NCBI GenBank assembly: GCA_041619515.1
Contig: JBFKDW010000001.1
Coordinates: 15,129 to 79,128 of the forward strand
Source of the DNA: Acidimicrobiia bacterium
GTDB lineage: Bacteria; Actinomycetota; Acidimicrobiia; Spongiisociales; SHLN01
Direction of reading: 5' to 3'
Length of the DNA stretch: 64,000 nt
The notes beneath the pieces were generated by a model. That model did not search any database. It was not told where the DNA came from and saw only the letters and a program-made list of their open reading frames with translations. The first letter of the stretch is position 1. Every line of letters starts with the position of its first letter. Both the position numbers and the translations under genes were made by a program. Positions 1-42,063 of this stretch are shown in pieces.

Positions 1-814
1 CGCCACAGTCGCAACGCCGGCTCCGGAAGACGTCGCCCGTAAGACACTCCGAATGGATGCGAACCAGCACCGAGCCGCCGTCATGAATATCGCCGTGCAC
101 GAGTGCCAGGTGCTCGGCACCCTCGAAATGATCCCTGAATCCGATGGCGCGAAACTCACCCTTCGGAGTCGGCAGGGTCACTTCGCTGGTGCGGGTGACA
201 AGCTGCTCGATCTGGCGCCGGTAGGAGATCAGGTCGGCGATCGTGACGAGCAGGATGCCGTGCTCTTTGGCAAAGAGCTCGAGATCGGCGCCCCGTGCCA
301 TCGTGCCGTCGTCGTTCACGATCTCGCACAGCACCCCGGCCGGATAGAGACCGGCGAGGCGGGCGAAGTCGACGGCCGCCTCGGTATGGCCGGGTCGCCG
401 CAATACACCACCGTCGCAGTAACGGAGGGGGAACACATGCCCAGGCCGAGCCAGATCGGACGGCCTCGTGAGCGGATCGATCATCGCCTGGATGGTTGCC
501 GCCCGGTCCTCGGCGGAGATACCGGTGGTTGTGCCCGGGGTGTAGTCGACCGAAACCGTGAACGACGTTCGGTGGATGTCGGTGTTGTCCGCCACCATGA
601 GTGGCAGGCGCAGATCGTCGAGCCGCTCCCCCACCAGCGGCATGCAAATGAGGCCGCTGGTGTATCGCACCATGAAGGCGATGGCTTCGGGGGTTACCTT
701 TTCAGCGGCGATGATGAGATCGCCTTCGTTCTCGCGATCGACGTCATCGATGACGACCAAGAACTCTCCGCGTGCGATGGCTTCGATCGCCTCTTCGATC
801 GGCGCGTGCTTCAT
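1..814 (-). CDS. ribBA: Bifunctional 3,4-dihydroxy-2-butanone-4-phosphate synthase / GTP cyclohydrolase II (N-terminal part; gene runs off window start)
   Basis: Not in the ORF track because there is no in-window stop. Minus-strand translation from the ATG at 812-814 reads [51 protein letters not shown], the classic RibB signature (DRENEGDL). The ATG overlaps the ribE stop (ATGA). It sits at the position expected for ribA2 in an actinobacterial rib operon. Confidence 0.75.
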
Positions 815-1404
815 GTGCGGTCCTCCAACAGACGTTCGACGTACTTGGCGAGAATGTCCACTTCGACGTTGACGGCCTCCCCGACCCGGCGGGCTCCGAG
901 CACCGTGACTTCGAGGGTGTGCGGGATCAAGACGAGATCAAACGTATCGGTGCCGACCGAGGTGATGGTGAGCGAAACCCCGTCAACGGCGACCGAGCCT
1001 TTCTCGACCATGTACCGAAGCAGGGCAGGCGCGGCGGCGAAGCGGACCCGCCGAGATTCCCCCTCGACGGCGATGTCGGCCACCTGCGCCGACCCGTCGA
1101 TGTGCCCTTGCACGATGTGCCCGTCGAAGCGTCCGGCAGCCGCCATCGGCCGCTCGAGGTTCACCCGGTCTCCGGGCGCAAGGGTTCCGAGATTGGTGCG
1201 CTCCAGGGTTTCGAACACGGCCGTCACCTCAACCAGGCCCGGGGCTGCCCCGACGGCGGTCAGGCACACGCCGTTCACGGCTACCGAGTCCCCGATCTCG
1301 AGGCCGTCGAGTGCCTTGGCGGCGGTGATGATGAGACGGCGGGCATCGTCTCCCTCCGAGACCTCGGCCACGGTGCCAATGCCTTCGACGATTCCGGTGA
1401 ACAT
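811..1404 (-). CDS. ribE: Riboflavin synthase alpha subunit
   Basis: Contains [12 protein letters not shown]...[12 protein letters not shown], and the internal duplication typical of riboflavin synthase is visible. The ATG at 1402-1404 overlaps the ribD stop (ATGA). The 5' part of ORF 811..1572 upstream of MFTGIVE is a read-through extension. Confidence 0.85.
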
Positions 1405-2504
1405 CAGTTGCTCTCGGTCCTGGTGAGGGTCACGTCCACCCGCAGGTCGGGCCCGACCCGCCGCACGTCCTCGATCTCGACGTCGATTGCGTCGTCGAGG
1501 GTGGCGAACGTCCCCGCGAACGGTGATCGTCCTACTCCGGCGGCCAGCTTCGAGCCGAAGTAGAAGACGCACCGGTCGATGAGGCGTGATTCGAGCAGGC
1601 TATCGGACAGTATCGGGCCGCCCTCGACGAGCAAGTCGAGGATCCCGCGGTCACCGAGCTCTCGCATCGCTTTCTCCAGATCGACCCGGTCGCCCGATTC
1701 GATGACCACGACTTCTGTGTCGAGCCGGCGGGTGGTGGGGGCGAATATGAGGGCATTTCGTTCGATGACCCGCAGGTCGTTCGGAAAGGGTCGCTTGCCG
1801 GCGATGACCACCGGGACCGGCTGGCGCCCGTGATAGCCGGGCAGGCGGACCGACAGATCCGGGTTGTCGGCCAGGACGGTGCCGGCACCGACCATAACGG
1901 CGTCGGCCCCGGCTCGCAGCCGATGGCCGTCTTCGCGTGCAGCGGCGGAGGTAATCCACTGCGAGGACCCGTCCAAGGCGGCCACCTGCCCGTCGAGAGT
2001 GAGTGCAGCCTTGAGCGTGACGCGCGGGCGTCCTGTCTTTCGATGGTGAAAGTACCCGGGATCCGCCGCTTCGACCTCGTCGGCAAGGAGCCCGGTGGCC
2101 ATCTCGATGCCGGCCTCTCGCAACCGCTCGACGCCGCTGCCGGCCACACGGGGATCAGGGTCGACGGCGCCGATGACGACGCGGGCGACGCCGGATTCGA
2201 CGATGGCGTCTGTGCAGGGCGGCGTGCGGCCGTGATGGTTGCACGGCTCCAGCGTTACCACCAGCGTGCCGCCCCGTGCGGCGGATCCGGCCTCTAGCAG
2301 AGCCGCCCGTTCGGCGTGGGGTCGGCCGGCCTCGTGGTGAATCGCCCGCCCGATCACGGCTCCGGACTCGTCGAGCACGACAGCGCCGACCCGGGGGTTG
2401 GGGTGCGGATTCACCTGGGAGGCTTCCCCGATGGCGCTCTGCATGTGGTTCCTGTAGTCGTTCACGGCGCTCCAGACAGTCGTGTCGAAGGAGTCCGCGC
2501 TCAC
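1404..2504 (-). CDS. ribD: Bifunctional diaminohydroxyphosphoribosylaminopyrimidine deaminase / 5-amino-6-(5-phosphoribosylamino)uracil reductase
   Basis: Deaminase zinc motif region HAERAALLEAG...TLVVTLEPCNHHGRTPPC, followed by a reductase domain. GTG start at 2504. An alternative ATG (MQSAIGEA) lies at about 2444. Directly downstream of the FMN riboswitch. Confidence 0.85.
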   Translation of the reverse strand: MSADSFDTTVWSAVNDYRNHMQSAIGEASQVNPHPNPRVGAVVLDESGAVIGRAIHHEAGRPHAERAALLEAGSAARGGTLVVTLEPCNHHGRTPPCTDAIVESGVARVVIGAVDPDPRVAGSGVERLREAGIEMATGLLADEVEAADPGYFHHRKTGRPRVTLKAALTLDGQVAALDGSSQWITSAAAREDGHRLRAGADAVMVGAGTVLADNPDLSVRLPGYHGRQPVPVVIAGKRPFPNDLRVIERNALIFAPTTRRLDTEVVVIESGDRVDLEKAMRELGDRGILDLLVEGGPILSDSLLESRLIDRCVFYFGSKLAAGVGRSPFAGTFATLDDAIDVEIEDVRRVGPDLRVDVTLTRTESN

Positions 2505-2514
2505 GCAGAAGCAG

Positions 2515-2632
2515 ACCCTTCTTCTTCCATCCGGACTGTCACCGTCGGCCCCGGAGTTCCACCGAGTCCACCCTTGCGGGGTCGCGGGCTTTCACCGCCG
2601 GTCGGGAATTGCACCCTGCCCTGAAGAAGAGC
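2515..2632 (-). promoter_or_regulatory. FMN riboswitch (RFN element) in ribD leader
   Basis: The minus-strand RNA reads CUUCUUCAGGGCAGGGUGCAAUUCCCGACCGGCGGUGAAAGCCCGCGACCCCGCAAGGGUGGACUCGGUGGAACUCCGGGGCCGACGGUGACAGUCCGGAUGGAAGAAGAAGG. This matches the conserved RFN core (GGGCAGGGUGAAAUUCCCGACCGGCGGU...AGCCCGCGA...CCGGGGCCGACGGU.A.AGUCCGGAUGG) with a P1 stem CUUCUUC/GAAGAAG. Confidence 0.85.
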
Positions 2633-2681
2633 TAGATGAAGTGTATCGCAGCTGCGCCGAAGGGCCGGGGCGAATAGGCGG

Positions 2682-2701
2682 GCCGACTCCCGCGAGTCGG
2701 C
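2682..2701 (-). terminator. GC-rich hairpin (GCCGACUC-GCGG-GAGUCGGC) overlapping the stop codon of the REC-GGDEF gene; possible terminator/insulator ahead of the rib promoter
   Basis: Perfect 8-bp inverted repeat with a 4-nt loop seen in the sequence. The downstream tract (CCGCCUAUUCG) is only weakly U-rich. Confidence 0.3.
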
Positions 2702-3630
2702 TAGGTGTTTCTGCGGTCGATCTCGTAGACGGAGCCCGGCTGGCGCTTGGCGTATTCCTTCATCTCCGAAGCCACCGCAGATGCCTCCCATTGATTGGAG
2801 ATATCACGATCTTTGGTGCTCACCACACCCAGCGAGATCGAGGTATGCGGGAAGGCATGGCGCTCGCCACGGCGATCGGTCACCTCGATGTAGCCGCGCA
2901 AGACGTCGCTGGTGTCGTAGAAATCGAGAATGCCCTCGTCGAAGGTCCTGATGAGGGTTTTGCAGAAGTCCTCCACTCCGTCGGGATCGACGATGGCAAC
3001 GAAGTCATCCCCGCCGACGTGTCCGACGAAGGCCTCGGGGTCATCGAGCCCGGCCTGGGCCTCGAGCATCACGTGGGCGGTGAACTTGATCACCCCGTCT
3101 CCGCGCATGAAGCCGTAGTGGTCGTTGAAGGCTTTGAAGTTGTCGAGATCAGCGTGTACGAGGGCGTACGGCTCACCGCTTTCGGTGCGCCGCTCCAACT
3201 CCTGCGTTATCCGGAAATTCCCGGGGAGACCGGTCAGCGGGGAAAGGTCGCGCATCGCCTTGGCACGCTGGAGCACGGTCCGCACCCGCACCATGAGCTC
3301 GTCGAGCTCGAAGGGCTTCGAGATGTAGTCGTCGGCACCCAGCTCCAGGCCTCGAATCCGATCCTGCGGCAAAGCCTTGGCGGTCAGCACGATGACCGGG
3401 ATGTTGGTGCTCACCGGGTGGGCGCGCATGCGGCGCAGCACGGCGAGACCGTCCATCTCGGGCATCATGATGTCGAGGATGACCAAATCGGGGGCGTTCT
3501 TGGTCACCGCGGCCAGAGCCGCCTTGCCGTCGGTGGCCGATGACACCTCGTAACCCTCGAGCTGCAGGTTCACCGAAACGAACTGGACTATGTCCGGATC
3601 ATCGTCGGCGATGAAAATATGTTCGTTCAT
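2701..3630 (-). CDS. Response regulator with receiver (REC) and GGDEF domains; GGDEF motif reads GGDDF and there is no RxxD I-site
   Basis: REC: IADDDPDIV...DLVILDIMMPEMDG...VIVLTAKA...DDYISKPF. GGDEF domain: ADLDNFKAFNDHYGF...GHVGGDDFVAIV. GGDDF is confirmed at the DNA level (GGC GGG GAT GAC TTC at 3001-3015). The ATG at 3630 overlaps the rpe stop (ATGA). Confidence 0.85.
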   Translation of the reverse strand: MNEHIFIADDDPDIVQFVSVNLQLEGYEVSSATDGKAALAAVTKNAPDLVILDIMMPEMDGLAVLRRMRAHPVSTNIPVIVLTAKALPQDRIRGLELGADDYISKPFELDELMVRVRTVLQRAKAMRDLSPLTGLPGNFRITQELERRTESGEPYALVHADLDNFKAFNDHYGFMRGDGVIKFTAHVMLEAQAGLDDPEAFVGHVGGDDFVAIVDPDGVEDFCKTLIRTFDEGILDFYDTSDVLRGYIEVTDRRGERHAFPHTSISLGVVSTKDRDISNQWEASAVASEMKEYAKRQPGSVYEIDRRNT

Positions 3631-4292
3631 CCGCTCTCGTTCTCTATGGCCGCTCGCAACTCTGCCACGGCATCGACGGGGTCGGGCCGTCCGAAAATGG
3701 CGGTGCCGGCAACGAAGATGTCGGCACCGGCGGCTCTCGCGAGCTTGCCTGTCTCGGGCGTAATGCCCCCGTCGATCTGTATATCGGCGGCAAACCCTTC
3801 AGAATCAATGATTTCCCTCGCATGTTCCACCTTCGTCAGCACGTCCGGGATGAACGCCTGGCCCCCAAATCCGGGATACACCGACATGATCAGCAGGTTG
3901 TCTACGAGGGAGAGGTACGGCTCGACCGCCGTCAGCGGTGTGGGCGGGTTGAGGGTCAGGCCGAATTGGAGGCCTTCGGCCCGGGCGGCCTCGGCCAGGG
4001 TGGTCGGATCGGGAGCCACCTCGATGTGAATCGTCACCATGTCGCATCCGGCCGCCTTGAAGTGAGGAAAGAAGTAGGCGGGGTTGTTCATCATCAAGTG
4101 GGTGTCGAAGAAGAGCCCGGTCGTCGGACGCAGATCTTCGATGACGCTGAGCCCGAAGGAGATATTGGGGACGAAATGACCGTCCATCACGTCGACGTGG
4201 AGCCCATCAACCACCTCCTCCACCCGGGCCACGTCCTCGGCAAGGTGAGCAAAATCTGCAGCCAGCAGTGAGGGGTAGATGCGAGCAGCCAT
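3627..4292 (-). CDS. rpe: Ribulose-phosphate 3-epimerase
   Basis: Contains LHVDVMDGHFVPNISFG...MSVYPGFGGQAF...DGGI, a typical Rpe. Confidence 0.9.
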   Translation of the reverse strand: MAARIYPSLLAADFAHLAEDVARVEEVVDGLHVDVMDGHFVPNISFGLSVIEDLRPTTGLFFDTHLMMNNPAYFFPHFKAAGCDMVTIHIEVAPDPTTLAEAARAEGLQFGLTLNPPTPLTAVEPYLSLVDNLLIMSVYPGFGGQAFIPDVLTKVEHAREIIDSEGFAADIQIDGGITPETGKLARAAGADIFVAGTAIFGRPDPVDAVAELRAAIENESG

Positions 4293-4338
4293 CCCGGGAG
4301 ATTACCGCCGAGCCCGGGTGTGTGGTCGCAGCATGCCG

Positions 4339-5532
4339 TCACGGGCGCACCAGGCTGATGAACATCCCGTCGCTGCCGGTGAGGTGGGGACCGAGCAGCC
4401 AGCCGTTCCCTGCCCGGCGGCCCGGCAAACCCGCAGGAGGTTCCGCCCGTGCGTTGGCCACCACCTCGGTGGTCTCCTCGGGGAACACGGTGCACACGGC
4501 GTACACCACCAGGCCGTCGGGTTTCACCAGCCTGAGTGCTGCGCTCAGGAGCTGCCGTTGGAGGGCTCCGGCCCGGCCCGGGCTGTCGGGCTGCAGCCGG
4601 TGCCGGATCTCGGGCCGCCGCCGCAGGGTCCCCAAGCCGGTGCAGGGGGCATCGAGCAGCACCCGGTCGAAGCTGGCGGTGGCAAATGGAGGGTGCCGGC
4701 CGTCTGCGACCACCAGCGGAATATCGACCCCGAGTCGTTCAAACCGGCGAGCGGCCGTCGCCAGGCGCCGGGCGTGGCGATCGGCCCCGATCACCAGGCC
4801 TCGGCCCTCCAGCTGATCGTGAAGATGCAGCGTCTTGCCACCCGGGGCTGCTGCCAGGTCGAGGATCACCATGCCTGGCCGGGCCCCGACCGCCAGGCCA
4901 ACGGCCACCGACGACGGGTCCATCGGCTCGGAACCCTTGAGATCGGCTCCGGTCTCGACGGCGCCGGCTATTCCCGGGATGGGCCGGCCGGCGCCGGCCC
5001 CCACCGACCGACTACGAGCGGTTCGAGGCGCGGGCTGGAGCGAAGCGGCCAGGAACGCCTCGGCTTCTGGCTGCCCCCACGCGTCGATGAGATTTCGATA
5101 CACCCACGGGTCGACTCCGAGCTCGATGGCCTTCCCGGGAAGCCCGGCAGGAAGCTCTTCCTTCCCGATCTGTACCTTGCGCAGCACCGCATTCACGAAT
5201 CCGGCCGCCCGCTCCCCCGAAGCCTTCCGGGCGGCTTCCACCGCCTCGTGAACGGCCGCATGGGGGGCGCCGCCTCCCAATCGGAGCTCCCAGGCCCCGA
5301 CCCGTAAGAGGTCCAGCACCGCCGGCTCGACATCGGAAAGCGAACGATCGACGGCATCGGCCAAGATTCGATCGATTCGGCCCAGCTGCCGCAACGTGCC
5401 GTAGACGAGCCGGCGCACCAGGGCAGCATCCGGGCCGGTCCCCAGCCCGGCGAGCAGGACGTTGGAATAGGCGCCCGACCTGAGGACCCGCCCGAGGATG
5501 ACCGCCGCCTCCGCTCGCGGTGATCGCTTCAC
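4339..5532 (-). CDS. rsmB: 16S rRNA (cytosine967-C5)-methyltransferase RsmB/Sun
   Basis: N-terminal NusB-like region, SAM-binding VLDLAAAPGGKT, and the DRVLLDAPCTGLGTLRRRPE catalytic motif. The likely GTG start at 5532 overlaps the fmt stop (GTGA). The ORF track extends it to 5568. Confidence 0.8.
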   Translation of the reverse strand: MKRSPRAEAAVILGRVLRSGAYSNVLLAGLGTGPDAALVRRLVYGTLRQLGRIDRILADAVDRSLSDVEPAVLDLLRVGAWELRLGGGAPHAAVHEAVEAARKASGERAAGFVNAVLRKVQIGKEELPAGLPGKAIELGVDPWVYRNLIDAWGQPEAEAFLAASLQPAPRTARSRSVGAGAGRPIPGIAGAVETGADLKGSEPMDPSSVAVGLAVGARPGMVILDLAAAPGGKTLHLHDQLEGRGLVIGADRHARRLATAARRFERLGVDIPLVVADGRHPPFATASFDRVLLDAPCTGLGTLRRRPEIRHRLQPDSPGRAGALQRQLLSAALRLVKPDGLVVYAVCTVFPEETTEVVANARAEPPAGLPGRRAGNGWLLGPHLTGSDGMFISLVRP

Positions 5533-6449
5533 TCCCAGTGGAAGGGCCCTCGGTGGCCGCGCGCCCACACGGCGCCGGGCATCCGGGCCCTGCCGGCTGC
5601 CTGCACCTCGATCAGCTCGAGAGCCCCTGCTGTAGTTCCGACGACCGGCGCGCCATCCTCGAGCCTGGTCTCACCGGCCGCAGCCCTCACCTCCGGGCGG
5701 AGCCGGGCCCGCCATACCTTCAGCCGCGCCCCATCCATCACACCCCAGGCACCGGGCCGGGGGTTGCAGGCGCGAACGATCCGGTCGGCCACCTCTGCCG
5801 GCATCGACCTCGGGTCCAGGCGGGCATCTTCGGCTGTGATCTTGGCGGCGATCGTCATGCCCTCCTCACCCTGAGGAGTGGTGGATGCGCTTCCATCGAG
5901 AATGCGGGGAAGGGTCTCGGCCAGAAGGTCCGCACCCATCCCTGCCAGTCGAGCGGTGAGTGTGCCGGTGGTGTCGGCCGGATCGATGGGTGCGGCTCGC
6001 CGGGCGATGAGCGGGCCCGTATCCATGCCGGCGTCCAGAGCTATGACATCCACCCCCGTGGTTTCGTCCCCGGCGAGGATCGCTCGCGCCACCGGTGCTG
6101 CGCCCCGCCAGCGGGGCAGCCGTGAGAAGTGGACGTTGACGAACCCATGAGCCGGCACTTCCAGCAGGTCGGCCGGGAGGATCTGGCCGTAGGCAACCAC
6201 CACTGCCAGGTCGAGGCCCGCCAGCAGGGGCGCCGTCTCCGCCGACCGCTCGGGCTGGGCCACCGGCAGGCCCCAGGCTTCAGCCGCCTCCTTGATGGCG
6301 GGTGGATGCGGGGCACCGGACCGCCCGCGAGCCTTATCCGGTCTCGTGACCACAGCCTGGACCTCGGTAGCCGCCGCCACGACCGCCAGGAAGGGAACCG
6401 CCGCCGGTGGTGTCCCGAAGAACGCGGTGCGGGCGCGTCGACCAGTCAC
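5529..6449 (-). CDS. fmt: Methionyl-tRNA formyltransferase
   Basis: N-terminal FFGTP...AVP formyltransferase fold and an Fmt C-terminal domain. The start overlaps the def stop. Confidence 0.85.
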   Translation of the reverse strand: MTGRRARTAFFGTPPAAVPFLAVVAAATEVQAVVTRPDKARGRSGAPHPPAIKEAAEAWGLPVAQPERSAETAPLLAGLDLAVVVAYGQILPADLLEVPAHGFVNVHFSRLPRWRGAAPVARAILAGDETTGVDVIALDAGMDTGPLIARRAAPIDPADTTGTLTARLAGMGADLLAETLPRILDGSASTTPQGEEGMTIAAKITAEDARLDPRSMPAEVADRIVRACNPRPGAWGVMDGARLKVWRARLRPEVRAAAGETRLEDGAPVVGTTAGALELIEVQAAGRARMPGAVWARGHRGPFHWE

Positions 6450-10050: not shown

Positions 10051-10284
10051 CTACTCCCCGGCTGCGGTGTCGACCTCAACTTTGCCTTCGGCGATCTCCT
10101 CGAGCGAGATGGACAAAGGCTTGCGAGACAACGACGTCACCTGGGGCGGGGCGTAGGTGCCAAGGCCTTCACCGAGCTGGTTGAAATAGGCGTTGATCTG
10201 CCGGGCGCGCCGGGCGGCCAGGACGACGAGCGTGAAGCGGTTGCCTGCCTTGTCGAGGACGGCCTCAATCGGCGGGTTGATCAT
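10051..10284 (-). CDS. rpoZ: DNA-directed RNA polymerase subunit omega
   Basis: MINPPIEAVLDKAGNRFTLVVLAARRARQIN is the RpoZ signature. Start at the ATG at 10284. The upstream part of ORF 10051..10425 is an extension. Confidence 0.8.
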   Translation of the reverse strand: MINPPIEAVLDKAGNRFTLVVLAARRARQINAYFNQLGEGLGTYAPPQVTSLSRKPLSISLEEIAEGKVEVDTAAGE

Positions 10285-10912
10285 GTTCGGAACCTTCCGG
10301 GTGTGCGAACACTGATAGTAGCTCGGCTGCGGCATCAGCGAGGACACCGTTGACGACCCGATGATCGAACTCGTCGGCCATAGCCATCTCCACCCGGGCG
10401 CGTTCGAGGCGCGCCGCAGTGTCACCGGTGTCCCCCCGGCGTGCCAGCCGGGCTTCGAGCTCCTCGAGTGACGGTGGCTCGATGAACACGAAAACCGCCT
10501 CGGGAGCCCGCTCCTTCACCTGCATGGCCCCCTGGACCTCGATTTCGAGGACGACGTCGACGCCCGCCGCCAGCTGATCCTCCACCGGCTGGCGGGGAGT
10601 TCCGTAGCGCTGGCTTGAGAAGTGGGCCCATTCGAGGAACCGATCCTCCTCGACCCACCGGGAGAACTCCTCCTCGGACAGAAAGATGTAGTCGTGACCG
10701 TCCGCCTCGCCGGGGCGGGGAGCACGGGTGGTGGCGCTCACCGAGAGATAGAAGGGCCAGCGTCCGATGACCTCACGCATGAGTGTGTCCTTGCCGACCC
10801 CCGACGGGCCGGCGACAACAAACAGGCGGCCTCGAGCCGGCTCAGGCGAGCCGGTCGAGGAGGGCTTGTCGTTGTCGCTCATTGAGCCCGCGAATCCTTC
10901 GATTGTCGGCAA
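10265..10912 (-). CDS. gmk: Guanylate kinase
   Basis: P-loop GPSGVGKDT and the guanylate kinase fold (SVSATTRAPRPGE...Y.F). The start is uncertain, with an alternative ATG at about 10882. Overlaps the rpoZ start. Confidence 0.8.
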   Translation of the reverse strand: MPTIEGFAGSMSDNDKPSSTGSPEPARGRLFVVAGPSGVGKDTLMREVIGRWPFYLSVSATTRAPRPGEADGHDYIFLSEEEFSRWVEEDRFLEWAHFSSQRYGTPRQPVEDQLAAGVDVVLEIEVQGAMQVKERAPEAVFVFIEPPSLEELEARLARRGDTGDTAARLERARVEMAMADEFDHRVVNGVLADAAAELLSVFAHPEGSEHDQPAD

Positions 10913-11153: not shown

Positions 11154-11180
11154 GATGGCTATCTCCAGTAGTTGGCTGGC

Positions 11181-11870
11181 CTAGGACTCTACAGCCTCGG
11201 CGATTGCCGCGGCTGCGGCAACGGGATCCGTGGCTCCGGTGATCGGGCGTCCGATGACGAGGTAGTCGGCACCACGCTCGATGGCCTCGGAGGGGCTCAT
11301 CGTCCGCTCCTGGTCGCCCGCCTCCGCACCGGGTGGTCGGATGCCGGGGGTGACTTTCAGGAGATCTGGAGCTATCTGGGACACCACACCAAGTTCTCTC
11401 GGGGAACAGATGACCCCCTCACAACCGGCCTCACCGGCGGTACGCGTCAACCGGGAAGTGAGCTTGCCGGGGCTGCTTCCCGGTGCCAGCCGTTCAACGT
11501 CGGCGTCGCTCATGCTGGTGAGCACCGTCACGGCCAGGATGCCGCTTCCGGTGGCAGCGGCGGCTGCCCCGGTAACGGCCGCCGTGAGAACGGGGACCCC
11601 CCCGGAGGCGTGGGCCGTTATCCACCTGGCGCCGAGAGCCGCCAGCCGCCGGGCGGCACGCTCCACCTGGCTCGGGATGTCATGCAGCTTGGCGTCGGCA
11701 AACACCGGCTTGCCGATCTCGGCCACGGCGGCGATCGTTGCAGGGCCGGGCCCGAACAGGAGCCCGAGGCCCACCTTGAAGCCGCCGACATGGGGAGCCA
11801 GGCCCCGGGCGAGACGCACCGCGTCCTCAGCCGTCGGCAGGTCGAGCGCAACCAGAATGCGGTCGCTCAC
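11181..11870 (-). CDS. pyrF: Orotidine 5'-phosphate decarboxylase
   Basis: Contains ILVALDLP...GFKVG...DAKLHDIP...VIGRPI. The GTG start at 11870 overlaps the pyrD stop (GTGA). The long N-terminal part of ORF 11181..12620 is an artefact overlapping pyrD. Confidence 0.8.
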   Translation of the reverse strand: MSDRILVALDLPTAEDAVRLARGLAPHVGGFKVGLGLLFGPGPATIAAVAEIGKPVFADAKLHDIPSQVERAARRLAALGARWITAHASGGVPVLTAAVTGAAAAATGSGILAVTVLTSMSDADVERLAPGSSPGKLTSRLTRTAGEAGCEGVICSPRELGVVSQIAPDLLKVTPGIRPPGAEAGDQERTMSPSEAIERGADYLVIGRPITGATDPVAAAAAIAEAVES

Positions 11871-12768
11871 GCCCGGTGGGCCCGCGCCGTGAGCCGACGA
11901 AGCGCTCCGATGTCCTTCCGCCGGCACCAGGCGTCCACCTGCCGGAGTACGCGGGTCCCCACCCTCGGCTCGGCGAAATGGGCGCTCCCGATGGCGACGG
12001 CGCTCGCTCCGGCCAGGAAGTACTCGATGACGTCTTCGCCAGTGCGAATTCCCCCGCAGCCGACGATCGGGACTTCGAGCGCAGCCGCCACTTCCCACAC
12101 GCACCGGAGCGCGATCGGCTTGAGGGGGGGCCCCGAGTATCCGCCGACTTCCCCCGATAGCGCTGGGCGTTGGGTGACGAGGTCGATCCCCATCCCCCAC
12201 ACGGTGTTCGTCAGCACCAGAAAGTCGGCGCCGGCCTCGGTTACGGCCCTGGCTGCACCGACGATGTCCTCGCTGTTTGGCGACAGCTTGGCTCCCAGCG
12301 GCAGGTCGGTCGCATCCCGGACTGCCGCGACGACCTTCCCGGCGGCGCCCGGGTCGAGGGCGAACATGGTTCCCTCCTCCAGGTTTGGGCAGGACAGGTT
12401 CACCTCCACCGCTGCGACGCCCGCGGCGGTCAAGCCCTTGGCGACGAGAGCAAACTCGGCGGGGCTGGTGCCAACTGCCGATCCCCACACCGGGACCGGC
12501 AGGGTCGACACGTCCGGCATGTTCGTTCGCCATTCGTCGATGCCGGGGTTCTGGATGCCGATTCCGTTGAGCATGCCGATTCCGGCAGGTGCGATGCGGG
12601 GTGGGGGCCGGCCCGGCCATGGCTCATGGCTGACCGACTTGGCCACCGCGGCGCCGTACACCTCGAGGGCGGCGACGTCGGCGAAGTCGTAGACCGATCC
12701 CACCGTCCCGGCCGCTGCGATCAGCGGTGATCGCAGCTCGAGCGCTCCGAGCGAAACCGTCAGGTCGG

Positions 12769-22313: not shown

Positions 22314-22856
22314 CTACTTGAGGATCTCTTCACCCACTGCAAGGGCAAACGGGCTGTCGCCGAACAAGAACGTGCCGCCCGTGTCGGTGAGGGTGACGAC
22401 CTGATAGCTGCCTGCAAACGTGTCGCCGACGCCAACCGTGTAGTCGGTTCCGGAGACGCGTACAACCGCTTGTCGCGTGCCGTCGCCGAGTGTGGTGACC
22501 GAGATCAGTGAGACCGGCGTGCCCCCCGGGTCGAAGCCGCCGTTGCCGCCGTCGCCGGTCCCATCGCCTTCCTCAGTGATGAGCGGCCGGAATGGATCGC
22601 GGGGCTGGGAGATCTGAAAGTCGTCGATCAACCGCATGCCGGGCAGGAGGTCGGCCGGCTGCTGGGAGACGATCCCCGCGTCGGCCAGCACCGTCGGCTC
22701 CAGCCGGTTGAGCGAAGATGACCCGATGAGGCTGGGAGCCACGAGCAGCCAGACGGCCGCGACCAGCAGCCCACCGACCAGGATCGAGCCGGTGCTGCTG
22801 GCAATGTGCTCTCGCAGACGAAGCAGCCGGCTGTCACGATATTCGAACTTCATCAT
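22314..22856 (-). CDS. PilP-like pilus assembly protein (N-terminal TM/signal anchor, Gly/Asp-rich linker, RDPF motif, C-terminal beta domain)
   Basis: N-terminal hydrophobic helix ILVGGLLVAAVWLLVAP, the conserved PilP-type motif RDPFRP, and a C-terminal beta-rich segment. The ATG overlaps the pilO stop (TAATG). No secretin follows; aroC is the next gene. Confidence 0.55.
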   Translation of the reverse strand: MMKFEYRDSRLLRLREHIASSTGSILVGGLLVAAVWLLVAPSLIGSSSLNRLEPTVLADAGIVSQQPADLLPGMRLIDDFQISQPRDPFRPLITEEGDGTGDGGNGGFDPGGTPVSLISVTTLGDGTRQAVVRVSGTDYTVGVGDTFAGSYQVVTLTDTGGTFLFGDSPFALAVGEEILK

Positions 22857-23446
22857 TATTCGCCGGCTCCATCGACAGGCTCGCCGGCATTTGCGACCGG
22901 GGCGCCGGCGAGATCGGATAGCGAGAAGGCGGTCGCAGTCATGGATACGGTCAAGATGTTTGTCCCGTCCTCATCCAGAGCCGAATCGATGCTGATCTGA
23001 TCGACCCGGACCAGGCGCTCGAGGTCCTCAATGGCAAAGAGAACGCTCAGTACCTTGAAATACGGTGCTTCGAAACGGATCGTCGTTGATATCTCGAAGA
23101 GGCCCTCCACGACGCTCGGAACGGGCGGGGTGGGGTTCAACGTGAGCAAGTCGACACCGGTGTCGACTGCGATGCTGTTGATGTCCTCGATGAGCGCCGC
23201 TCCGTCGGGGAAGGCGGGGATCGAGTTCTGAATCTCACTCAGCGCCAGGAGAAACTCTCCCTCCTTGGCGGCGAGCGCTTGCAGTTCGTTGCGGCGCGCC
23301 TCGAGAGTGGATTGCTCGATTTGCGCTGCCGCCTCTTGATCCTGGAAATCACTGATCTCGGTCGACTTGCCGGCCATGAACAGGAACCACCACCCGGCCG
23401 TTATCACGAGCACTCCCAGCACTCCGAAGATGAGCCCGCGCCGCAT
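22856..23446 (-). CDS. pilO: Type IV pilus inner-membrane alignment protein PilO
   Basis: Single N-terminal TM (LIFGVLGVLVITAGWWFLF), a coiled-coil region and a PilO-like periplasmic domain. Start at the ATG at 23446, overlapping the pilN stop. ORF 22856..23572 is over-extended. Confidence 0.7.
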   Translation of the reverse strand: MRRGLIFGVLGVLVITAGWWFLFMAGKSTEISDFQDQEAAAQIEQSTLEARRNELQALAAKEGEFLLALSEIQNSIPAFPDGAALIEDINSIAVDTGVDLLTLNPTPPVPSVVEGLFEISTTIRFEAPYFKVLSVLFAIEDLERLVRVDQISIDSALDEDGTNILTVSMTATAFSLSDLAGAPVANAGEPVDGAGE

Positions 23447-24069
23447 CAGGGGATCTCCGGTATTCGTTCGAACAACCTGCCGGACAGTGCGTCGGAGGTC
23501 AGACTGGTCGTCGAGCCAAACGTGACGACATCCTCCTCGGCGATCTGGCTCGCGATGATGCCGCTCGCCCACGTTCCCACCACACCGGGATAGCGGTCCG
23601 AGTCCAGGATCCGAATCCAGGCCGCCACGTCGGGCGGGGCGAATGCCGTGCCCGAAAAGGTGACCTCGCCGATGCTCGTGACGTCACCGGTGGGTGCAAC
23701 CGGGTTGGTGGTACCCGTGTAGTTGGTCACCCACACTCGATCGGGTATCAGCCTCCCGAGATCGTTGAGCAGCCGGCCCCAGCTGACGTCGTTGACGAGG
23801 GCGCTTCCCAGGAGCGTCACGCCGGCCTCGAACTCGTTGCGCACCGCCTCGGCCCCGGCCAGCGAGCTGACCTCCGCCTGGAGCTGCTGGTTGGTGGCCA
23901 GCTGAGCCTGCAGGTCGGCCTCGGCGTCGTTGACCGCCCCCTGTCGCCAGACGGCCACCGCGCCGAGCAGCAAGACATAGAGCACACCGAGGGCGAGCCA
24001 GAGGGCGAGCCGATTCCTCGCCTCGCTCGCTTTCTTCCCCGTCTGGGGTATGAGGTTGATCGTGCGCAT
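23446..24069 (-). CDS. pilN: Type IV pilus assembly protein PilN
   Basis: N-terminal INLIP motif (the PilM-binding INLLP motif), one TM helix and a coiled-coil. The ATG overlaps the pilM stop. Confidence 0.75.
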   Translation of the reverse strand: MRTINLIPQTGKKASEARNRLALWLALGVLYVLLLGAVAVWRQGAVNDAEADLQAQLATNQQLQAEVSSLAGAEAVRNEFEAGVTLLGSALVNDVSWGRLLNDLGRLIPDRVWVTNYTGTTNPVAPTGDVTSIGEVTFSGTAFAPPDVAAWIRILDSDRYPGVVGTWASGIIASQIAEEDVVTFGSTTSLTSDALSGRLFERIPEIP

Positions 24070-25160
24070 CAGCCCCCCCAGAGCGCCAGGCCGACGGGGA
24101 TGGGTATCACCGGCTGCATCGCGGAGATCTCAGCCTCGGACAGCTTGCCGGTGTTCAAGCCTTCGATGACCCGGGCGGGCTCGATCCGCGCACCGAGGGT
24201 GTCGCCGAGCCGGTTGGCGAGGTGCGGCAGCCGGGCTCCGTTGCCGGATACGATGATACGGCTGAGCTCGGCGTCATCGGACTGGCCCAGGTAGAAATTC
24301 ACCGAGCCGCGTACTTCGTCGATGAATCTCTCCGCCTGGGCATCGAGGATGGTTCGAGCTCGGTCCTCCAGCGCCGACACCGACGCGTCTCCGTCGTCGG
24401 CTGTGGGGGTGATGGCGGCGGCTTCCCCCCCAACCGGGGTCAGTCCCACCTGGCGCTTGAGGTCCTCGGCCTCTTCCCAGGTGACGTCGAGGCCGTCGAC
24501 CAGTGCGGCAGTGAAATCCTCTCCACCCTGCTGGAGCAAGCGGACAAAGCGCGGCTCCCCGGCGCGTACCAGCAACACCTGGGAGACCCCCGAGCCGATG
24601 TCGACGACCGCCGCCACGCTACCGATATCGAAATCACCGTAGAACAGGGCGCGGATGAGCCCGAAGGCTTGCAGGTCGAGGGCAATCGGCGTGATCCCGG
24701 CAGCATTGACCGCTGCGAGCAACGTTTCCACCATGTCCCGCTGCGCGGCCACGACGAGGATCGAGAGCATCGGCTCACCGTCGGGGGTGGTGAACTCCTC
24801 GATGGGGACGAAGTCCAGGAAGGTCTCCTCGACGGGGATTGGGATGTACTCCTGGACCTGGAACGGGAGTGCCTCGACCAGCTCGAGCTCACTCATGCGG
24901 GGAACGTCAACCTGGCGGACGATCACGCGTTGGTTGGCGAGGCCGAGCACGATGCGGCGCTTCGGCAGCTTGGTCTCCTTCCAGAGGCGGGAGATGGCGG
25001 CGGTCACGGCTTCGGGATCGACGATCTCGCCGGCCACCACCGCCCCGCGCTCGATGTCGACCTGGCCGATCCGGCGGATAACCGGGGGCTGTTTCCCGGT
25101 GTCGAGGGCGACGGCGCGCACACCGGTTGCGCCGATGTCCAGCCCCACGTTGACCGCCAT
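24069..25160 (-). CDS. pilM: Type IV pilus assembly ATPase-like protein PilM (actin/FtsA fold)
   Basis: MAVNVGLDIGATGVRAVAL... and an FtsA/PilM-like fold through to the C-terminus. An SD sequence GGAG lies 6 nt upstream. Confidence 0.85.
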   Translation of the reverse strand: MAVNVGLDIGATGVRAVALDTGKQPPVIRRIGQVDIERGAVVAGEIVDPEAVTAAISRLWKETKLPKRRIVLGLANQRVIVRQVDVPRMSELELVEALPFQVQEYIPIPVEETFLDFVPIEEFTTPDGEPMLSILVVAAQRDMVETLLAAVNAAGITPIALDLQAFGLIRALFYGDFDIGSVAAVVDIGSGVSQVLLVRAGEPRFVRLLQQGGEDFTAALVDGLDVTWEEAEDLKRQVGLTPVGGEAAAITPTADDGDASVSALEDRARTILDAQAERFIDEVRGSVNFYLGQSDDAELSRIIVSGNGARLPHLANRLGDTLGARIEPARVIEGLNTGKLSEAEISAMQPVIPIPVGLALWGG

Positions 25161-25261: not shown

Positions 25262-26038
25262 TCACCGGCCGAGATACCAGTCGACGAGCTGCTGCCCGAT
25301 CACCAGGGCCAGGTACGAGCCAAAGATCATGGCGGGTCCGAACGGGATCTTCGCCTTGCGGGTGGCTCTGCCGGCCAGCAGAAGGGCAATCGCGACCACC
25401 CCGCCGATGGCGATTCCGAGGGCAACGCCGGCGCCGAGCACCTCCCACGATCGATAGGTCAGGAAGAGCCCCAGGAAGAAGGCGAGCTTTACGTCACCCA
25501 GACCAAAGCCGCCGCGGGCGACGAGGGCAAGGGCGAGGAAGATCGCGAAATATAGGCTTGCCCCGGCGAGCGCCCGGCCAAAGGAAGCGAGATCTCCATC
25601 AGCGATGGCCGCCACGAGCAAGAGCGCAGCACCGACCAGCGTCGACGGATAGAGGATGCGATTCGGCAGCCGATGGACATCCAGGTCGGTGAGAACCAGC
25701 GCAAGGCCGACTCCCGCAAACCACAGGTAGGCCGGGAGCTCGGGCTCGATCCCAATAACGAGGACCGCAGACGCGAAGAGGATGGCGGCGCCCACCTCGA
25801 CGATCGGGTAGCGGACGCTGATATGGCCTCCACAGTCCCGGCAACGACCCCGCAGCAACACCCACGACAGCACGGGAATGTTGTCTCGCGGCCGGATGGC
25901 TGCCCGGCACACCGGGCAGGCGGACGGTGGTGAGACGACCGAGTGGCCGGCCGGGACCCGGTAGGCAACCACGTTGATGAACGAGCCGAAGATGAGGCCG
26001 AACAGTGCGGCCACGGCTACCGCAGGAAGGGCATCCAT
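25262..26038 (-). CDS. pilD: Prepilin peptidase (A24 family) PilD
   Basis: N-terminal zinc tetracysteine motif CPVC...CRDC, a polytopic membrane protein with catalytic Asp motifs (DLDVHRLP, GLGDVKL). Confidence 0.85.
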   Translation of the reverse strand: MDALPAVAVAALFGLIFGSFINVVAYRVPAGHSVVSPPSACPVCRAAIRPRDNIPVLSWVLLRGRCRDCGGHISVRYPIVEVGAAILFASAVLVIGIEPELPAYLWFAGVGLALVLTDLDVHRLPNRILYPSTLVGAALLLVAAIADGDLASFGRALAGASLYFAIFLALALVARGGFGLGDVKLAFFLGLFLTYRSWEVLGAGVALGIAIGGVVAIALLLAGRATRKAKIPFGPAMIFGSYLALVIGQQLVDWYLGR

Positions 26039-26066: not shown

Positions 26067-26543
26067 TTACCAGCCTGAAGCCGACCAGGTCCCGACGCCC
26101 GGGGGGCCGGCGGCGCTGCACGCACCGAACGGGTTCGCCGAGTGGCGGCCGAATTGGGTGCCACCGGCCGAGTTCTCCCAGATGGCGAGGAACTCACCGC
26201 GCGGGGTCCTGGCAACGAGACACACCACCTGAGCGGTGGGATCGATGGTGACGGCGACGGGGTCGAAGGTGTTGACGGCCGGGCTGGCACCGGTGACGTT
26301 GAACAAGCTCGGCTCGATCGCCGACAGCAGATCGAGATCGTCCGTGAACTGGGCTGCCCCGCCGGCGTAGTACGCCTTCTCCGTGGTGAGAGCGTTCCTG
26401 AGGTGGCTCTTGGCGGCCGAATCCTCCGCCTCCTTGCGTTGACCGAGGAAGGTCGGGATCGCAATGGCGATGAGGATCGCCACGATGAGGACGACGATCA
26501 TCAATTCGATGAGGGTGAATCCTCGGTCGTCTCTGCTCCACAT
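26067..26543 (-). CDS. pilA: Type IV major pilin paralog (class III signal peptide RG|FTLIELMIVV)
   Basis: MWSRDDRGFTLIELMIVVLIVAILIAIAIPTF..., a C-terminal Cys pair and ...SASGW. An SD sequence GAGAAGG lies upstream of the ATG at 26543. The rest of ORF 26067..26864 is an extension. Confidence 0.8.
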   Translation of the reverse strand: MWSRDDRGFTLIELMIVVLIVAILIAIAIPTFLGQRKEAEDSAAKSHLRNALTTEKAYYAGGAAQFTDDLDLLSAIEPSLFNVTGASPAVNTFDPVAVTIDPTAQVVCLVARTPRGEFLAIWENSAGGTQFGRHSANPFGACSAAGPPGVGTWSASGW

Positions 26544-26629
26544 GGCGGCGCCTTCTCGTTGACTGTACGTCGGGTTTTCGGCGCGGACCGACCGGCTCTT
26601 GAGCGATATGCGTCGCGAATCCGATGGCT

Positions 26630-26661
26630 CCCAACAACAGGAAACGGGCCCCGAAGGGCCC
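26630..26661 (-). terminator. Intrinsic terminator after the first pilin gene: GGGCCC-UUCG-GGGCCC stem-loop followed by GUUUCCUGUUGUUGG
   Basis: Seen in the sequence on the minus-strand RNA about 30 nt after the pilA1 stop. It has a GC stem, a UUCG tetraloop and a U-rich tail. Confidence 0.55.
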
Positions 26662-26688
26662 GAATCCGGTTTGCTTATCGAGCTGGGT

Positions 26689-27153
26689 TTACCAGCCGCC
26701 TGGCGTCCACGGAGCGCCGGGCTGGGCGACCGGGCAAGGCGCCGTAGTCGGAGCCGCCGCAGCTTTGTAGTAGACGGTTCCGGCAGTGGTCCCATCCCAG
26801 ACGGCGAAGTAGTCGCCGCCATCGCTCTGCTGCACGAGGCAGACAGAGACGCCACCAGCACCAATGGTCACCGTGACCGGGTCCGCACCGGTGCCGAACA
26901 GGTTCGGCTCGATGGCGGCAAGGTCGGCGGTGGTCGCCGTGAAGACCTGGTTCACGGAGAAGTAGGCCTTCTCGGTCGCCAGGGCGTTACGGACGTTGCT
27001 CTTGGCAGCGCTGTCCTGTGCGTTCTTCCGCTGACCCAGGAAGGTGGGGATGGCAATGGCGACCAGAATGGCAATAATCAGCACCACGACCATCAGCTCG
27101 ATGAGTGTGAAGCCCTCGTCCTTGTTGAGACGGGACCGCATCGCTTTGAGCAT
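26689..27153 (-). CDS. pilA: Type IV major pilin (class III signal peptide EG|FTLIELMVVV)
   Basis: MLKAMRSRLNKDEGFTLIELMVVVLIIAILVAIAIPTF..., a C-terminal Cys pair and ...TPGGW. A strong SD sequence AAGGAG lies 8 nt upstream of the ATG at 27153. Confidence 0.85.
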   Translation of the reverse strand: MLKAMRSRLNKDEGFTLIELMVVVLIIAILVAIAIPTFLGQRKNAQDSAAKSNVRNALATEKAYFSVNQVFTATTADLAAIEPNLFGTGADPVTVTIGAGGVSVCLVQQSDGGDYFAVWDGTTAGTVYYKAAAAPTTAPCPVAQPGAPWTPGGW

Positions 27154-27333: not shown

Positions 27334-28554
27334 CTAGCCGACGACGTTGACCAGGTTGAACATCGGCAGGTAGAGAGCCACGAGGATGCCGCCGACCGTC
27401 AATCCCATGAAGGCGATCAGGAGCGGCTCGAGCAAGCTGGTGAGGGCGTCGACGGTGTCGTTGACCTCCTGGTCGTAGAACGACGCCACCTTCTCCAGCA
27501 TGGCGTCGACGGCGCCGGTTTCCTCGCCCACTGCGATCATCTGCACGACCATGGACGGAAACACCTTGTGCTTGGCGAGGGGCACGGCGAGCGAGTCGCC
27601 ATCCTTCACCGACTTGGCGACGTCGGCGACTGCGTCGGAAACGATCGCATTGCCGGCCACGTCCCGAACGATCTCCATCGCCTGCAGGATGGGAACTCCC
27701 GTCCGCAGCAGGACGCCGAGCGTCGAGGAAAAGCGGCTGATTGCCGTCTTGTGAACCACTCCCCCGAACACCGGCATCTTCAGCTTGGCGGCGTCCCACA
27801 CGTGCCGTCCGGCGGTCGTGTTGATCCACCGACGGAACCCCCAGACCGACGCCCCCATGAGGGGAAACACGATGAACCAGAAAGACTTCAAGAGGTCTGA
27901 GCCGCCGATGAGGATCTTCGTCGGCACCGGCAGCTCGCCCCCCGCCCCGGCGTAGAGATCCTGAAAGATCGGCACCACGAAGACGAGCATGGCGAGGACC
28001 ACGAGAGCAACCATCGAGAGCACGACGACCGGGTAGGCCATCGCCGACTTGATCTTGCTGCGTAGCGCCACCTGGTTCTCGAGGGCGGCGGCCAGCCGCA
28101 GCAGCGTGTCGTCGAGGACACCACCGGCTTCCCCGGCGCGCACCATCGACGTGTAAAGCTGGCTGAATGCTTTGGGGTGCTTCTCCAGAGCCGCCGAGAG
28201 CCCGACGCCCCGCTCGACGTCGCGCCTCACCTCTCCGATTATCCGGGCCAGCGCTTTGGACTCGGTCTGCTCCTCGAGCACCGAGAGCGACCGCAGCAGC
28301 GAGAGTCCGGCGTTGATCATGGTGGCGAACTGGCGGCTGAAGACCGCCACCTCCTTCGCCTTGACCCGGTCGCTCAGGCCGGGGATGTTGATCTCCGTCT
28401 TCAGGCCGCTCGTCTTGACCTCGTCGACCGCCAGAGGGACTGCCCCTCGTTCCCGCAGGGCCTTGACGACCGCATCCCGGGAGGAACCTTCGATCTGCCC
28501 CTCGAGGACCTTGCCGCTCTTGTCCCGGGCGCGATAGTCGAACATGGTGGCCAT
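27334..28554 (-). CDS. pilC: Type IV pilus platform protein PilC (GspF family)
   Basis: Two T2SS-F repeats and three TM segments. MATMFDYRARDKSGK...FSRQFATMINAGLSL... Confidence 0.9.
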   Translation of the reverse strand: MATMFDYRARDKSGKVLEGQIEGSSRDAVVKALRERGAVPLAVDEVKTSGLKTEINIPGLSDRVKAKEVAVFSRQFATMINAGLSLLRSLSVLEEQTESKALARIIGEVRRDVERGVGLSAALEKHPKAFSQLYTSMVRAGEAGGVLDDTLLRLAAALENQVALRSKIKSAMAYPVVVLSMVALVVLAMLVFVVPIFQDLYAGAGGELPVPTKILIGGSDLLKSFWFIVFPLMGASVWGFRRWINTTAGRHVWDAAKLKMPVFGGVVHKTAISRFSSTLGVLLRTGVPILQAMEIVRDVAGNAIVSDAVADVAKSVKDGDSLAVPLAKHKVFPSMVVQMIAVGEETGAVDAMLEKVASFYDQEVNDTVDALTSLLEPLLIAFMGLTVGGILVALYLPMFNLVNVVG

Positions 28555-41897: not shown

Positions 41898-42063
41898 CGC
41901 CTCAGGCTATATCGACCGTCGAGTCGCCCGGCCGGGGTCGTAAAGATGCTGCCGGAGGCTGCCGACACCTTCTCTGCGGGGCGGTGACCAGCCCCGCTGC
42001 GATCGACTGCAATGACACGCCGAAAAGCTTCACAATCTCACACTGTGTGCCGATAGCCACCAC

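Follow-up and report, generated by a model that had tools for sequence, protein, structure and literature searches.

A bacterial response regulator whose catalytic signature departs from the canonical form raises the question of whether the departure marks a decayed enzyme or an enzyme of a different kind. The regulator considered here lies on the minus strand of a 64,000-nucleotide stretch (64 kb; hereafter, the window) of contig JBFKDW010000001.1 from an Acidimicrobiia bacterium. Its gene, an open reading frame (ORF) with an ATG start, occupies 2701..3630, stop codon included, and encodes 309 amino acids, in which a receiver (REC) domain is followed by a GGDEF-type output domain reading GGDDF. 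A preliminary description, made from the sequence alone, had taken the protein for a possibly weak, inactive or degenerate diguanylate cyclase and its gene for an insertion into a conserved operon. Neither view agrees with what we found. Conservation among homologous sequences indicates that GGDDF is the signature of a large cyclase clade and not a product of decay. The regulator itself is, in our judgement, probably a phosphorylation-activated diguanylate cyclase of the clade represented by GSU1937 of Geobacter sulfurreducens, making c-di-GMP (cyclic diguanosine monophosphate).

A conserved clade with the H-x-GGDDF signature

The REC-GGDEF type of the protein was borne out by Pfam, which placed REC at residues 5-116 and GGDEF at residues 131-215. 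The output domain comprises residues 129-309 (2704..3246, minus strand), of which Pfam matched the N-terminal half. The GGDEF profile (PF00990) scored 44.3 bits against a cut-off of 23.8 (E=2e-11), covering only profile positions 5-89 of 161. The active-site motif, residues 206-210, is encoded by GGC GGG GAT GAC TTC at 3001..3015 of the minus strand, exactly where it had been placed before. In the alignment with PleD, D161 (codon 3148-3150) corresponds to D327, K166 to K332, N169 (3124-3126) to N335, D178 (3097-3099) to D344 and GGDD to G368-E371. The segment ADLDNFKAFND, previously likened to the DxLT region, is really the metal- and base-binding DxD...FKxxND segment; it is SPLTGLPGN, at residues 129-138, that forms the DxLTGL-type element. 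The comparison with active GGDEF domains, which had been proposed as a check, gave a divided answer: the metal- and guanine-binding residues match those of PleD, as expected of a competent enzyme, whereas GGDDF and His204 (3019-3021) deviate. The RxxD inhibitory site (I-site), five residues before the motif, is absent, as had been noticed; the positions read D-P-E-A and vary across the family.

The protein departs from the canonical definition of a cyclase in two items, namely the motif consensus [G/A/S]G[D/E]E[F/Y], owing to the Asp at the fourth position of GGDDF, and the preceding Arg. It shows all of the tested features of the H-x-GGDDF clade. Its second half contains every C-terminal residue that is specific to the clade and invariant or nearly so in the alignments (Y238, R253, K291, K295, S300 and D305-R306-R307). 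Despite the divergence of this half, the AlphaFold2 model and Foldseek give the GGDEF fold. The NCBIfam collection held no model specific to the REC-GGDDF family and returned only receiver-domain matches and a partial match to PleD.

The size and uniformity of the clade carry the argument. A homologue search yielded more than 7,900 matches, the best 120 of which are 64-94% identical to the regulator, about 308 amino acids long and mostly labelled Acidimicrobiia; H[VI]GGDDF is present in 119 of these 120. When the C-terminal 189 residues were searched against 1.84 billion representatives of 50% identity clusters, 792 clusters were found at E<1e-30, and 143 of the 150 best representatives aligned over the whole domain (about 185 residues). 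In the resulting clade alignment of 144 domain sequences, the query included, the His is kept in 143, as is each of the GGDD residues, and the catalytic and clade positions are conserved to 94-99%. We also scanned one genome per species, which gave at least 594 confirmed relatives, and examined 80 loci. D161, K166, N169, GGDD, H204, R253, K291, K295 and R307 are invariant in all 80 of them, and the position of D178 is Asp in 79. One protein, P0130, has both types of domain: its GGDDF-type domain aligns with the window domain over all 189 residues at 45% identity and its canonical GGEEF domain over 69 residues only. The two types therefore represent distinct clades of one fold. Because H-x-GGDDF is near-invariant in a large conserved clade and the metal- and guanine-binding residues are intact, the motif should not be regarded as degenerate, and the published activity of the GSU1937 domain speaks in the same direction. 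Our literature search on HIGGDDF and HVGGDDF found nothing beyond the GSU1937 paper.

The connection to an experimentally tested enzyme runs through GSU1937, which has a transmembrane HAMP input, GGDDF and a Ser at the base-specificity position (PMC8835794). When its GGDDF domain was joined to the N-terminal region of GacA, cyclic GMP-AMP (cGAMP) and c-di-GMP were made in E. coli; the GADDF mutant of this chimera was inactive, and deletion of GSU1937 lowered the output of a cGAMP reporter (PMC8835794). In our clade alignment, Ser occurs at position 178 in seven of the 144 sequences, six being HAMP-GGDDF proteins by Pfam and the seventh P0235 (317 amino acids). A search from one of the HAMP-GGDDF proteins reached named Geobacter and Desulfuromonas proteins. 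Those of G. metallireducens and G. sulfurreducens align with the window domain over 181-182 residues, free of gaps and at 45% identity, and both have FVGHVGGDDFV and a Ser at the D344 position. The G. sulfurreducens protein, P0426, contains a HAMP domain and is encoded at 2.11 Mb of the 3.75-Mb chromosome; with its HAMP domain, Ser, GGDDF and map position it therefore fits the gene number and description of GSU1937. The preliminary description had held that robust activity despite GGDDF would undo the degenerate interpretation, and this much has been reached in part, by homology to the GSU1937 domain only. A second enzyme with GGDDF, PA3258 of Pseudomonas aeruginosa (EAL-CBS-GGDEF), showed apparent cyclase activity after inactivation of its phosphodiesterase in a 2026 study (PMC12900916).

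Asp and Ser have switched at the base-specificity position inside the clade, as expected of nucleotide-using enzymes. A Ser at the position of PleD D344 lets Hypr GGDEF enzymes use adenosine triphosphate (ATP). The window protein, with Asp178, lacks this Hypr hallmark. A REC-GGDDF member with Ser in place of this Asp (YGFFAGSEVIK) is encoded at 8001-8909 of L050, the single exception among the 80 loci, and this sequence variant suggests that cGAMP makers might also exist in the REC architecture.

The receiver domain (3283..3618, minus strand) is complete, as had been claimed, and was matched by PF00072 with 113.6 bits against a cut-off of 30.2 (E=7e-33). The acidic pocket DDD lies at residues 9-11 and the phospho-acceptor D53 (3472-3474) in LVILDIMMP at 49-57, with T83 in LTAK and K105 in SKPF. 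D10, D53 and K105 never vary in the 80 loci; at position 83, 77 loci have Thr and three have Ser. All four residues are invariant in the 48 loci of the syntenic set, and the remaining 32 vary only between Thr and Ser at position 83. The AlphaFold2 model of the regulator has a pLDDT of 91, and in the secondary structure assigned to it by DSSP the alpha5 helix (residues 109-128; 3247..3306, minus strand) runs unbroken from the receiver into the cyclase domain. WspR, PleD and DgcR are the top whole-chain matches in Foldseek. Three distant REC-GGDDF relatives in alignment A1 (P0128, P0143 and P0155) no longer have the phospho-acceptor Asp, have lost further residues of the receiver and retain a fully conserved GGDDF domain. 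The output domain is therefore the constrained unit in these relatives.

Gene order, inheritance and the riboflavin genes

The regulator gene follows rpe, encoding ribulose-phosphate 3-epimerase (3627..4292, minus strand), and the stop codon of rpe shares four nucleotides with the start codon of the regulator as ATGA (3627-3630). On its other side lies the flavin mononucleotide (FMN) riboswitch aptamer that heads the rib operon (2515..2632, minus strand; Rfam RF00050, 112.2 bits, E=2.6e-25). Past the riboswitch come ribD (deaminase/reductase; 1404..2504, minus strand) and ribE (riboflavin synthase; 811..1407, minus strand, in an ORF of 811-1572 with the start inferred at an internal ATG, MFTGIVEG...). 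In related loci, RibD homologues lie 3' of the regulator and ribE homologues come after ribD. Both the translational coupling to rpe and the site upstream of the rib riboswitch, as originally proposed, are thus well founded. Upstream of rpe, the same block of the minus strand contains the tightly packed rsmB (4339..5568) and fmt (5529..6449), with def and priA further upstream.

A GC-rich hairpin with a 9-bp stem and no T-run (2681..2702) lies over the stop codon of the regulator. It was called as a terminator-like site on the plus strand and, being palindromic, also folds in the minus-strand transcript; it may be the 3' end of a def-fmt-rsmB-rpe-regulator transcript. Reading by eye, we noted a -10-like hexamer, TACACT, immediately 5' of the riboswitch. 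The hairpin and the hexamer suggest that one transcript ends here and a separate rib promoter follows. A scan of 2300-4500 for sigma-70-type promoters returned no sites.

The order rpe-regulator-ribD was found in 42 of the 80 examined loci, usually as PriA-Def-Fmt-RsmB-Rpe-regulator-RibD-RibE. The 42 loci are distributed over Acidimicrobiia, Nitriliruptoria, unclassified Actinomycetes and cultured Micromonosporaceae, the last including Salinispora, Micromonospora, Actinoplanes, Phytohabitans and Nucisporomicrobium. The identity of the regulator to the window protein rises and falls with that of its neighbours, with Spearman coefficients of 0.63 for Rpe, 0.81 for RibE and 0.91 for Def. In the closest group the regulator has a mean identity of 65%, compared with 57% for Rpe, 52% for RibD, 47% for Fmt and 45% for PriA. 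It is conserved as well as Def, and better than Rpe, RibD, RibE, Fmt, RsmB and PriA. Since the order is common to at least 42 loci of several actinobacterial classes and divergence follows that of the neighbours, the regulator is apparently old and vertically inherited in Actinomycetota under strong purifying selection, which contradicts the proposed insertion into a conserved operon. In mycobacteria, ribG directly follows rpe; this order is as likely to reflect loss of the regulator there as its insertion elsewhere.

Outside Actinomycetota, the family occurs in differing contexts in Chloroflexota, Clostridia, Eisenbacteria, Omnitrophota, Elusimicrobia and others. Among 41 flanking genes of non-actinobacterial members, we counted ten histidine kinases, three HD-GYP genes and one EAL gene. 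GGDDF domains are also fused to HD-GYP, EAL-CBS, a kinase core or canonical GGDEF. These neighbours and fusions are consistent with two-component control and with c-di-GMP metabolism. The majority of the family consists of stand-alone REC-GGDDF proteins that lack any further output.

The relation to the riboflavin genes varies among the 42 syntenic loci. In 27 of them an FMN riboswitch separates the regulator from ribD; in at least nine there is none, and ribD is within about 42 nucleotides of the regulator. Where the riboswitch is present, the regulator would not be FMN-controlled because its gene lies upstream of it. In two Acidimicrobiia loci (7342-11770 of L014 and 65-4492 of L011), the FMN riboswitch is missing, and rpe, the regulator, ribD, ribE and ribBA are joined in a single operon whose spacers are zero or overlapping. 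One protein, P0138 (1095-3236 of L082), is an in-frame REC-GGDDF-RibD fusion, whose RibD part matches dCMP_cyt_deam_1 and RibD_C. Its linker of 45 codons is rich in Pro and Gly and contains no riboswitch, and RibD keeps its own ATG. We considered this fusion as a Rosetta-stone link and set it aside as anecdotal, because it stands on a single 3.5-kb contig from one sequencing run and might reflect a lost stop codon or an assembly error.

About 50 ORFs of the window were scanned. Neither Pfam nor a crude H-box motif scan of these ORFs found a histidine kinase in the 64 kb, and the Pfam scans found no EAL, HD-GYP or second GGDEF domain there. The regulator is accordingly an orphan and the only candidate source of c-di-GMP in the window, as had been stated, which says nothing about the rest of the genome. 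The window otherwise holds housekeeping genes (rib, rpe, rsmB, fmt, def, priA, coaBC-like, gmk, pyr, efp, aro, mltG, alaS, aspS, hisS, relA, secDF, tgt, queA, ruvAB, pdxS and gltA), and between 22.8 and 31.7 kb a type IV pilus cluster. Since the window encodes both a full-length RelA/SpoT (p)ppGpp synthetase-hydrolase (45847-48036, minus strand) and guanylate kinase (10265-10912, minus strand), genes for the metabolism of guanine nucleotides and for signalling with them are well represented in it, which is probably ordinary housekeeping synteny. Four long plus-strand ORFs with high G+C content at third codon positions had no Pfam match (44254-45846, 11172-12692, 41211-41987 and 55829-56500); of these, 11172-12692 probably shadows pyrF, which is encoded on the other strand.

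The pilus cluster, on the minus strand, contains two T2SSE-family ATPases, one PilB-like (30084-31748) and a second (28555-30156). Its other genes, situated between the aro genes and the ATPases, encode PilO-like (22856-23572), PilM (24069-25160) and PilC (27334-28554) proteins, a prepilin peptidase (25262-26038) and a pilin that has an N-methylation motif (26067-26864). Both ATPases match the Pfam MshEN domain, so that the earlier statement about MshEN motifs holds at the level of the domain; it does not hold for the strict 24-residue c-di-GMP-binding motif, which matched neither ATPase, the first-position Arg being His, Pro or Gln. The PilB-like ATPase begins with tandem 24-mers, HLGTMLLQEGLLSRADLDRATEIQ, then AESGM, then PLGRILVEEGFVKETDLVKTLARH, which resemble the c-di-GMP-binding MshEN motif with the first Arg replaced by His or Pro. 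Binding of c-di-GMP by this region is uncertain, and a link between the regulator and the pilus ATPases, resting on an MshEN domain in which the key Arg is substituted, is speculation.

Catalysis weighed against its alternatives

The architecture, clade membership, residue conservation and synteny described above point to a catalytic role, in which product and activation might be envisaged in this way. Asp53 would receive its phosphoryl group from an unlinked histidine kinase or from a small phosphodonor. The phosphorylated receivers would re-pair, and the continuous alpha5 helices would join the two C-terminal domains, so that the enzyme could condense two molecules of guanosine triphosphate (GTP) into c-di-GMP. 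H-x-GGDDF would then be the native catalytic signature of a domain with a remodelled C-terminal, phosphate-binding half. In Actinomycetota the regulator gene is the last of the def-fmt-rsmB-rpe block, directly ahead of or inside the rib operon. Asp178 at the base-specificity position predicts GTP as the substrate and c-di-GMP as the product, and the absence of RxxD predicts that no product inhibition acts through an I-site.

Several observations weigh against this proposal. His204 occupies the position of PleD Arg366 in the alignment, so that the Arg two residues before the motif is missing, as had been observed from the beginning. At the fourth position of the motif, where the residue has been described as a catalytic base working across the dimer, a shorter Asp replaces Glu. 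No solved GGDEF domain was matched by a profile of the C-terminal half, for which reason we dropped the sequence-based assignment of equivalents for the phosphate-binding pair K442 and R446 of PleD. In the predicted secondary structure, K295 closes a helix at 280-295 and Ser300 falls where PleD Arg446 would lie; by this model, the invariant Ser300 appears to replace the Arg446 equivalent. The identity of P0426 with GSU1937 was inferred from its features and map position rather than from a locus tag, and GSU1937, the only tested member of the clade, has a HAMP input and not the REC-GGDDF architecture. In E. coli, neither wild-type GSU1937 nor three of the four chimeras showed activity (PMC8835794), and early screens in P. 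aeruginosa saw no cyclase phenotype from PA3258. The fusions of GGDDF domains upstream of canonical GGDEF, HD-GYP or EAL would fit a nucleotide-sensing role.

These fusions resemble the arrangement of CC3396, a GTP-sensing degenerate GGDEF protein, and the regulator might accordingly be a non-catalytic nucleotide sensor or adaptor, whose GGDDF domain binds GTP or another nucleotide without cyclising it and which, once phosphorylated, acts through protein-protein contacts. The Glu-to-Asp and Arg-to-His replacements, the silent PA3258 screens and the inactive GSU1937 constructs would all suit such a protein. We give this explanation a minor though appreciable chance. Binding alone would not demand that the motif Asp residues and the metal-binding D161 be invariant over several phyla. 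Moreover, the prevalent stand-alone REC-GGDDF form leaves a sensor without any other output, one GSU1937-domain chimera was active and died with the GADDF mutation, and the recent data suggest residual cyclase activity of PA3258. A receptor for c-di-GMP of the PopA/PelD type, that is, a degenerate GGDEF domain binding the messenger at the inhibitory site, would agree with the non-canonical motif, the orphan status and the single output domain. Such receptors, however, usually lose the active-site residues that are invariant here, and the D-P-E-A positions vary across the family. Without RxxD an I-site receptor was ruled out, and we consider a receptor of this type very unlikely indeed.

Alternatively, the regulator might be an active cyclase that makes something other than c-di-GMP, for instance cGAMP or another mixed dinucleotide, or a linear molecule of the pppGpG type. 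The remodelled C-terminal half would then alter substrate handling. The only tested clade member makes cGAMP besides c-di-GMP, the phosphate-binding half is unlike that of solved cyclases, and a His stands in place of the substrate-contacting Arg of PleD. There is furthermore a weak match to the Cas10 palm-2 profile (E=0.051), and such enzymes use GGDD with ATP. Yet the guanine-reading N169 and D178 (N335 and D344 in PleD) are intact and invariant in the syntenic orthologues, and the ATP-permitting Ser occurs only in the HAMP subgroup and in a small number of other members. The Cas10 match (PF22335) reached 14.1 bits, far under the cut-off of 27, and in view of this score and the missing CRISPR context we rejected a Cas10-like GGDD cyclase as a candidate. 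Another product seems rather unlikely to us.

The position between rpe and ribD raises the prospect that the regulator is tied to riboflavin, pentose-phosphate or GTP metabolism; its conserved place would then reflect joint control of the use of GTP or ribulose 5-phosphate (Ru5P), and not an inherited gene order. This would accord with the gene order in the 42 loci of several actinobacterial classes, with the at least nine loci in which ribD follows within about 42 nucleotides and no riboswitch intervenes, with the zero-spacer operons of L014 and L011 that extend to ribBA, and with the one contig carrying the in-frame RibD fusion. Against it, the non-actinobacterial members adjoin kinases, HD-GYP and unrelated genes rather than rib genes, the regulator precedes the riboswitch where there is one and hence escapes FMN control, and the entire def-fmt-rsmB-rpe-rib block is a conserved gene order. 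The fusion, with its Pro/Gly-rich linker on one short contig, may be no more than a lost stop codon. We find this explanation quite improbable. A broader picture, which we offer as doubtful, would make H-x-GGDDF a separate family of nucleotide cyclases with a rebuilt phosphate-binding half, in which the canonical Arg is lost and R253, S300 and D305-R307 take over. The actinobacterial REC-GGDDF protein would then be a core, vertically inherited enzyme through which the synthesis of a second messenger, or the sensing of GTP, is linked to the rpe-riboflavin locus, co-translated with ribD-ribE-ribBA where the riboswitch is missing and perhaps partly controlling the flow of GTP and Ru5P into flavins.

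Returning to the diguanylate cyclase that we favour, the regulator is a core, highly conserved gene and a candidate housekeeping diguanylate cyclase of Acidimicrobiia, an abundant class in which, to our knowledge, almost no signalling has been studied experimentally. With a large selected clade and at least one active member behind it, GGDDF should not be counted as degenerate in censuses of c-di-GMP enzymes. Orthologues in culturable Salinispora, Micromonospora and Actinoplanes make the cyclase prediction directly testable, and the deeply conserved place of the gene beside, and in some lineages inside, the riboflavin operon is a concrete association that genetics could approach.

Comparison with known systems

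GSU1937, a cyclase of the Hypr kind, belongs to the same output-domain clade as the window protein and shares with it the motif FVGHVGGDDFV and the C-terminal end PGS...(D/N)RR. The N-terminal region of GacA is, we presume, a receiver domain, which would make the active chimera a REC-GGDDF protein like that of the window. In this construct the GGDDF domain of GSU1937 had been put in place of GacA's own GGDEF domain (PMC8835794). The two proteins differ in their input, transmembrane HAMP in GSU1937 and REC in the window protein, and at the base-specificity position, where GSU1937 has Ser and makes both cGAMP and c-di-GMP, whereas the window protein has Asp178 and is predicted to use GTP only.

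In overall build, the protein is like DgcR of Leptospira biflexa (Protein Data Bank entries 6zxb, 6zxc and 6zxm), a small, prototypic Rec-GGDEF cyclase, which has the same size and the same succession of receiver, continuous alpha5 linker and cyclase domain. DgcR gave the best whole-chain TM-score among the top structural matches (0.50), and its profile match covers window residues 2-219. The sequence identity is about 25%, however, and no similarity in sequence can be recognised in the second half of the window domain. DgcR carries the canonical motif, the Arg before it and an RxxD I-site, and its entries list a c-di-GMP complex and an I-site mutant. PleD of Caulobacter and WspR of Pseudomonas are likewise phosphorylation-activated REC-GGDEF cyclases, with metal- and guanine-binding residues that align one-to-one with those of the window protein. 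They carry GGEEF, Arg366 and the I-site, and PleD has two receivers, whereas GGDDF, His204, the lack of an I-site and, apparently, Ser300 for Arg446 distinguish the window protein.

PA3258 and its P. fluorescens homologue RapA resemble the window protein in their published GGDDF motif, within an EAL-CBS-GGDEF architecture; this likeness is drawn from their description and not from their sequences. Clade members of the same architecture in our alignments, P0140 and P0166, are 42-46% identical to the window domain. PA3258 differs in being a multidomain protein of the phosphodiesterase type with no REC domain and with a disputed cyclase activity. Cas10/Cmr2 proteins have a homologous palm fold, and both Asp residues of their GGDD motif are catalytic. 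The window protein is set apart from them by the lack of CRISPR context and of the other Cas10 domains, and by a Pfam match below threshold.

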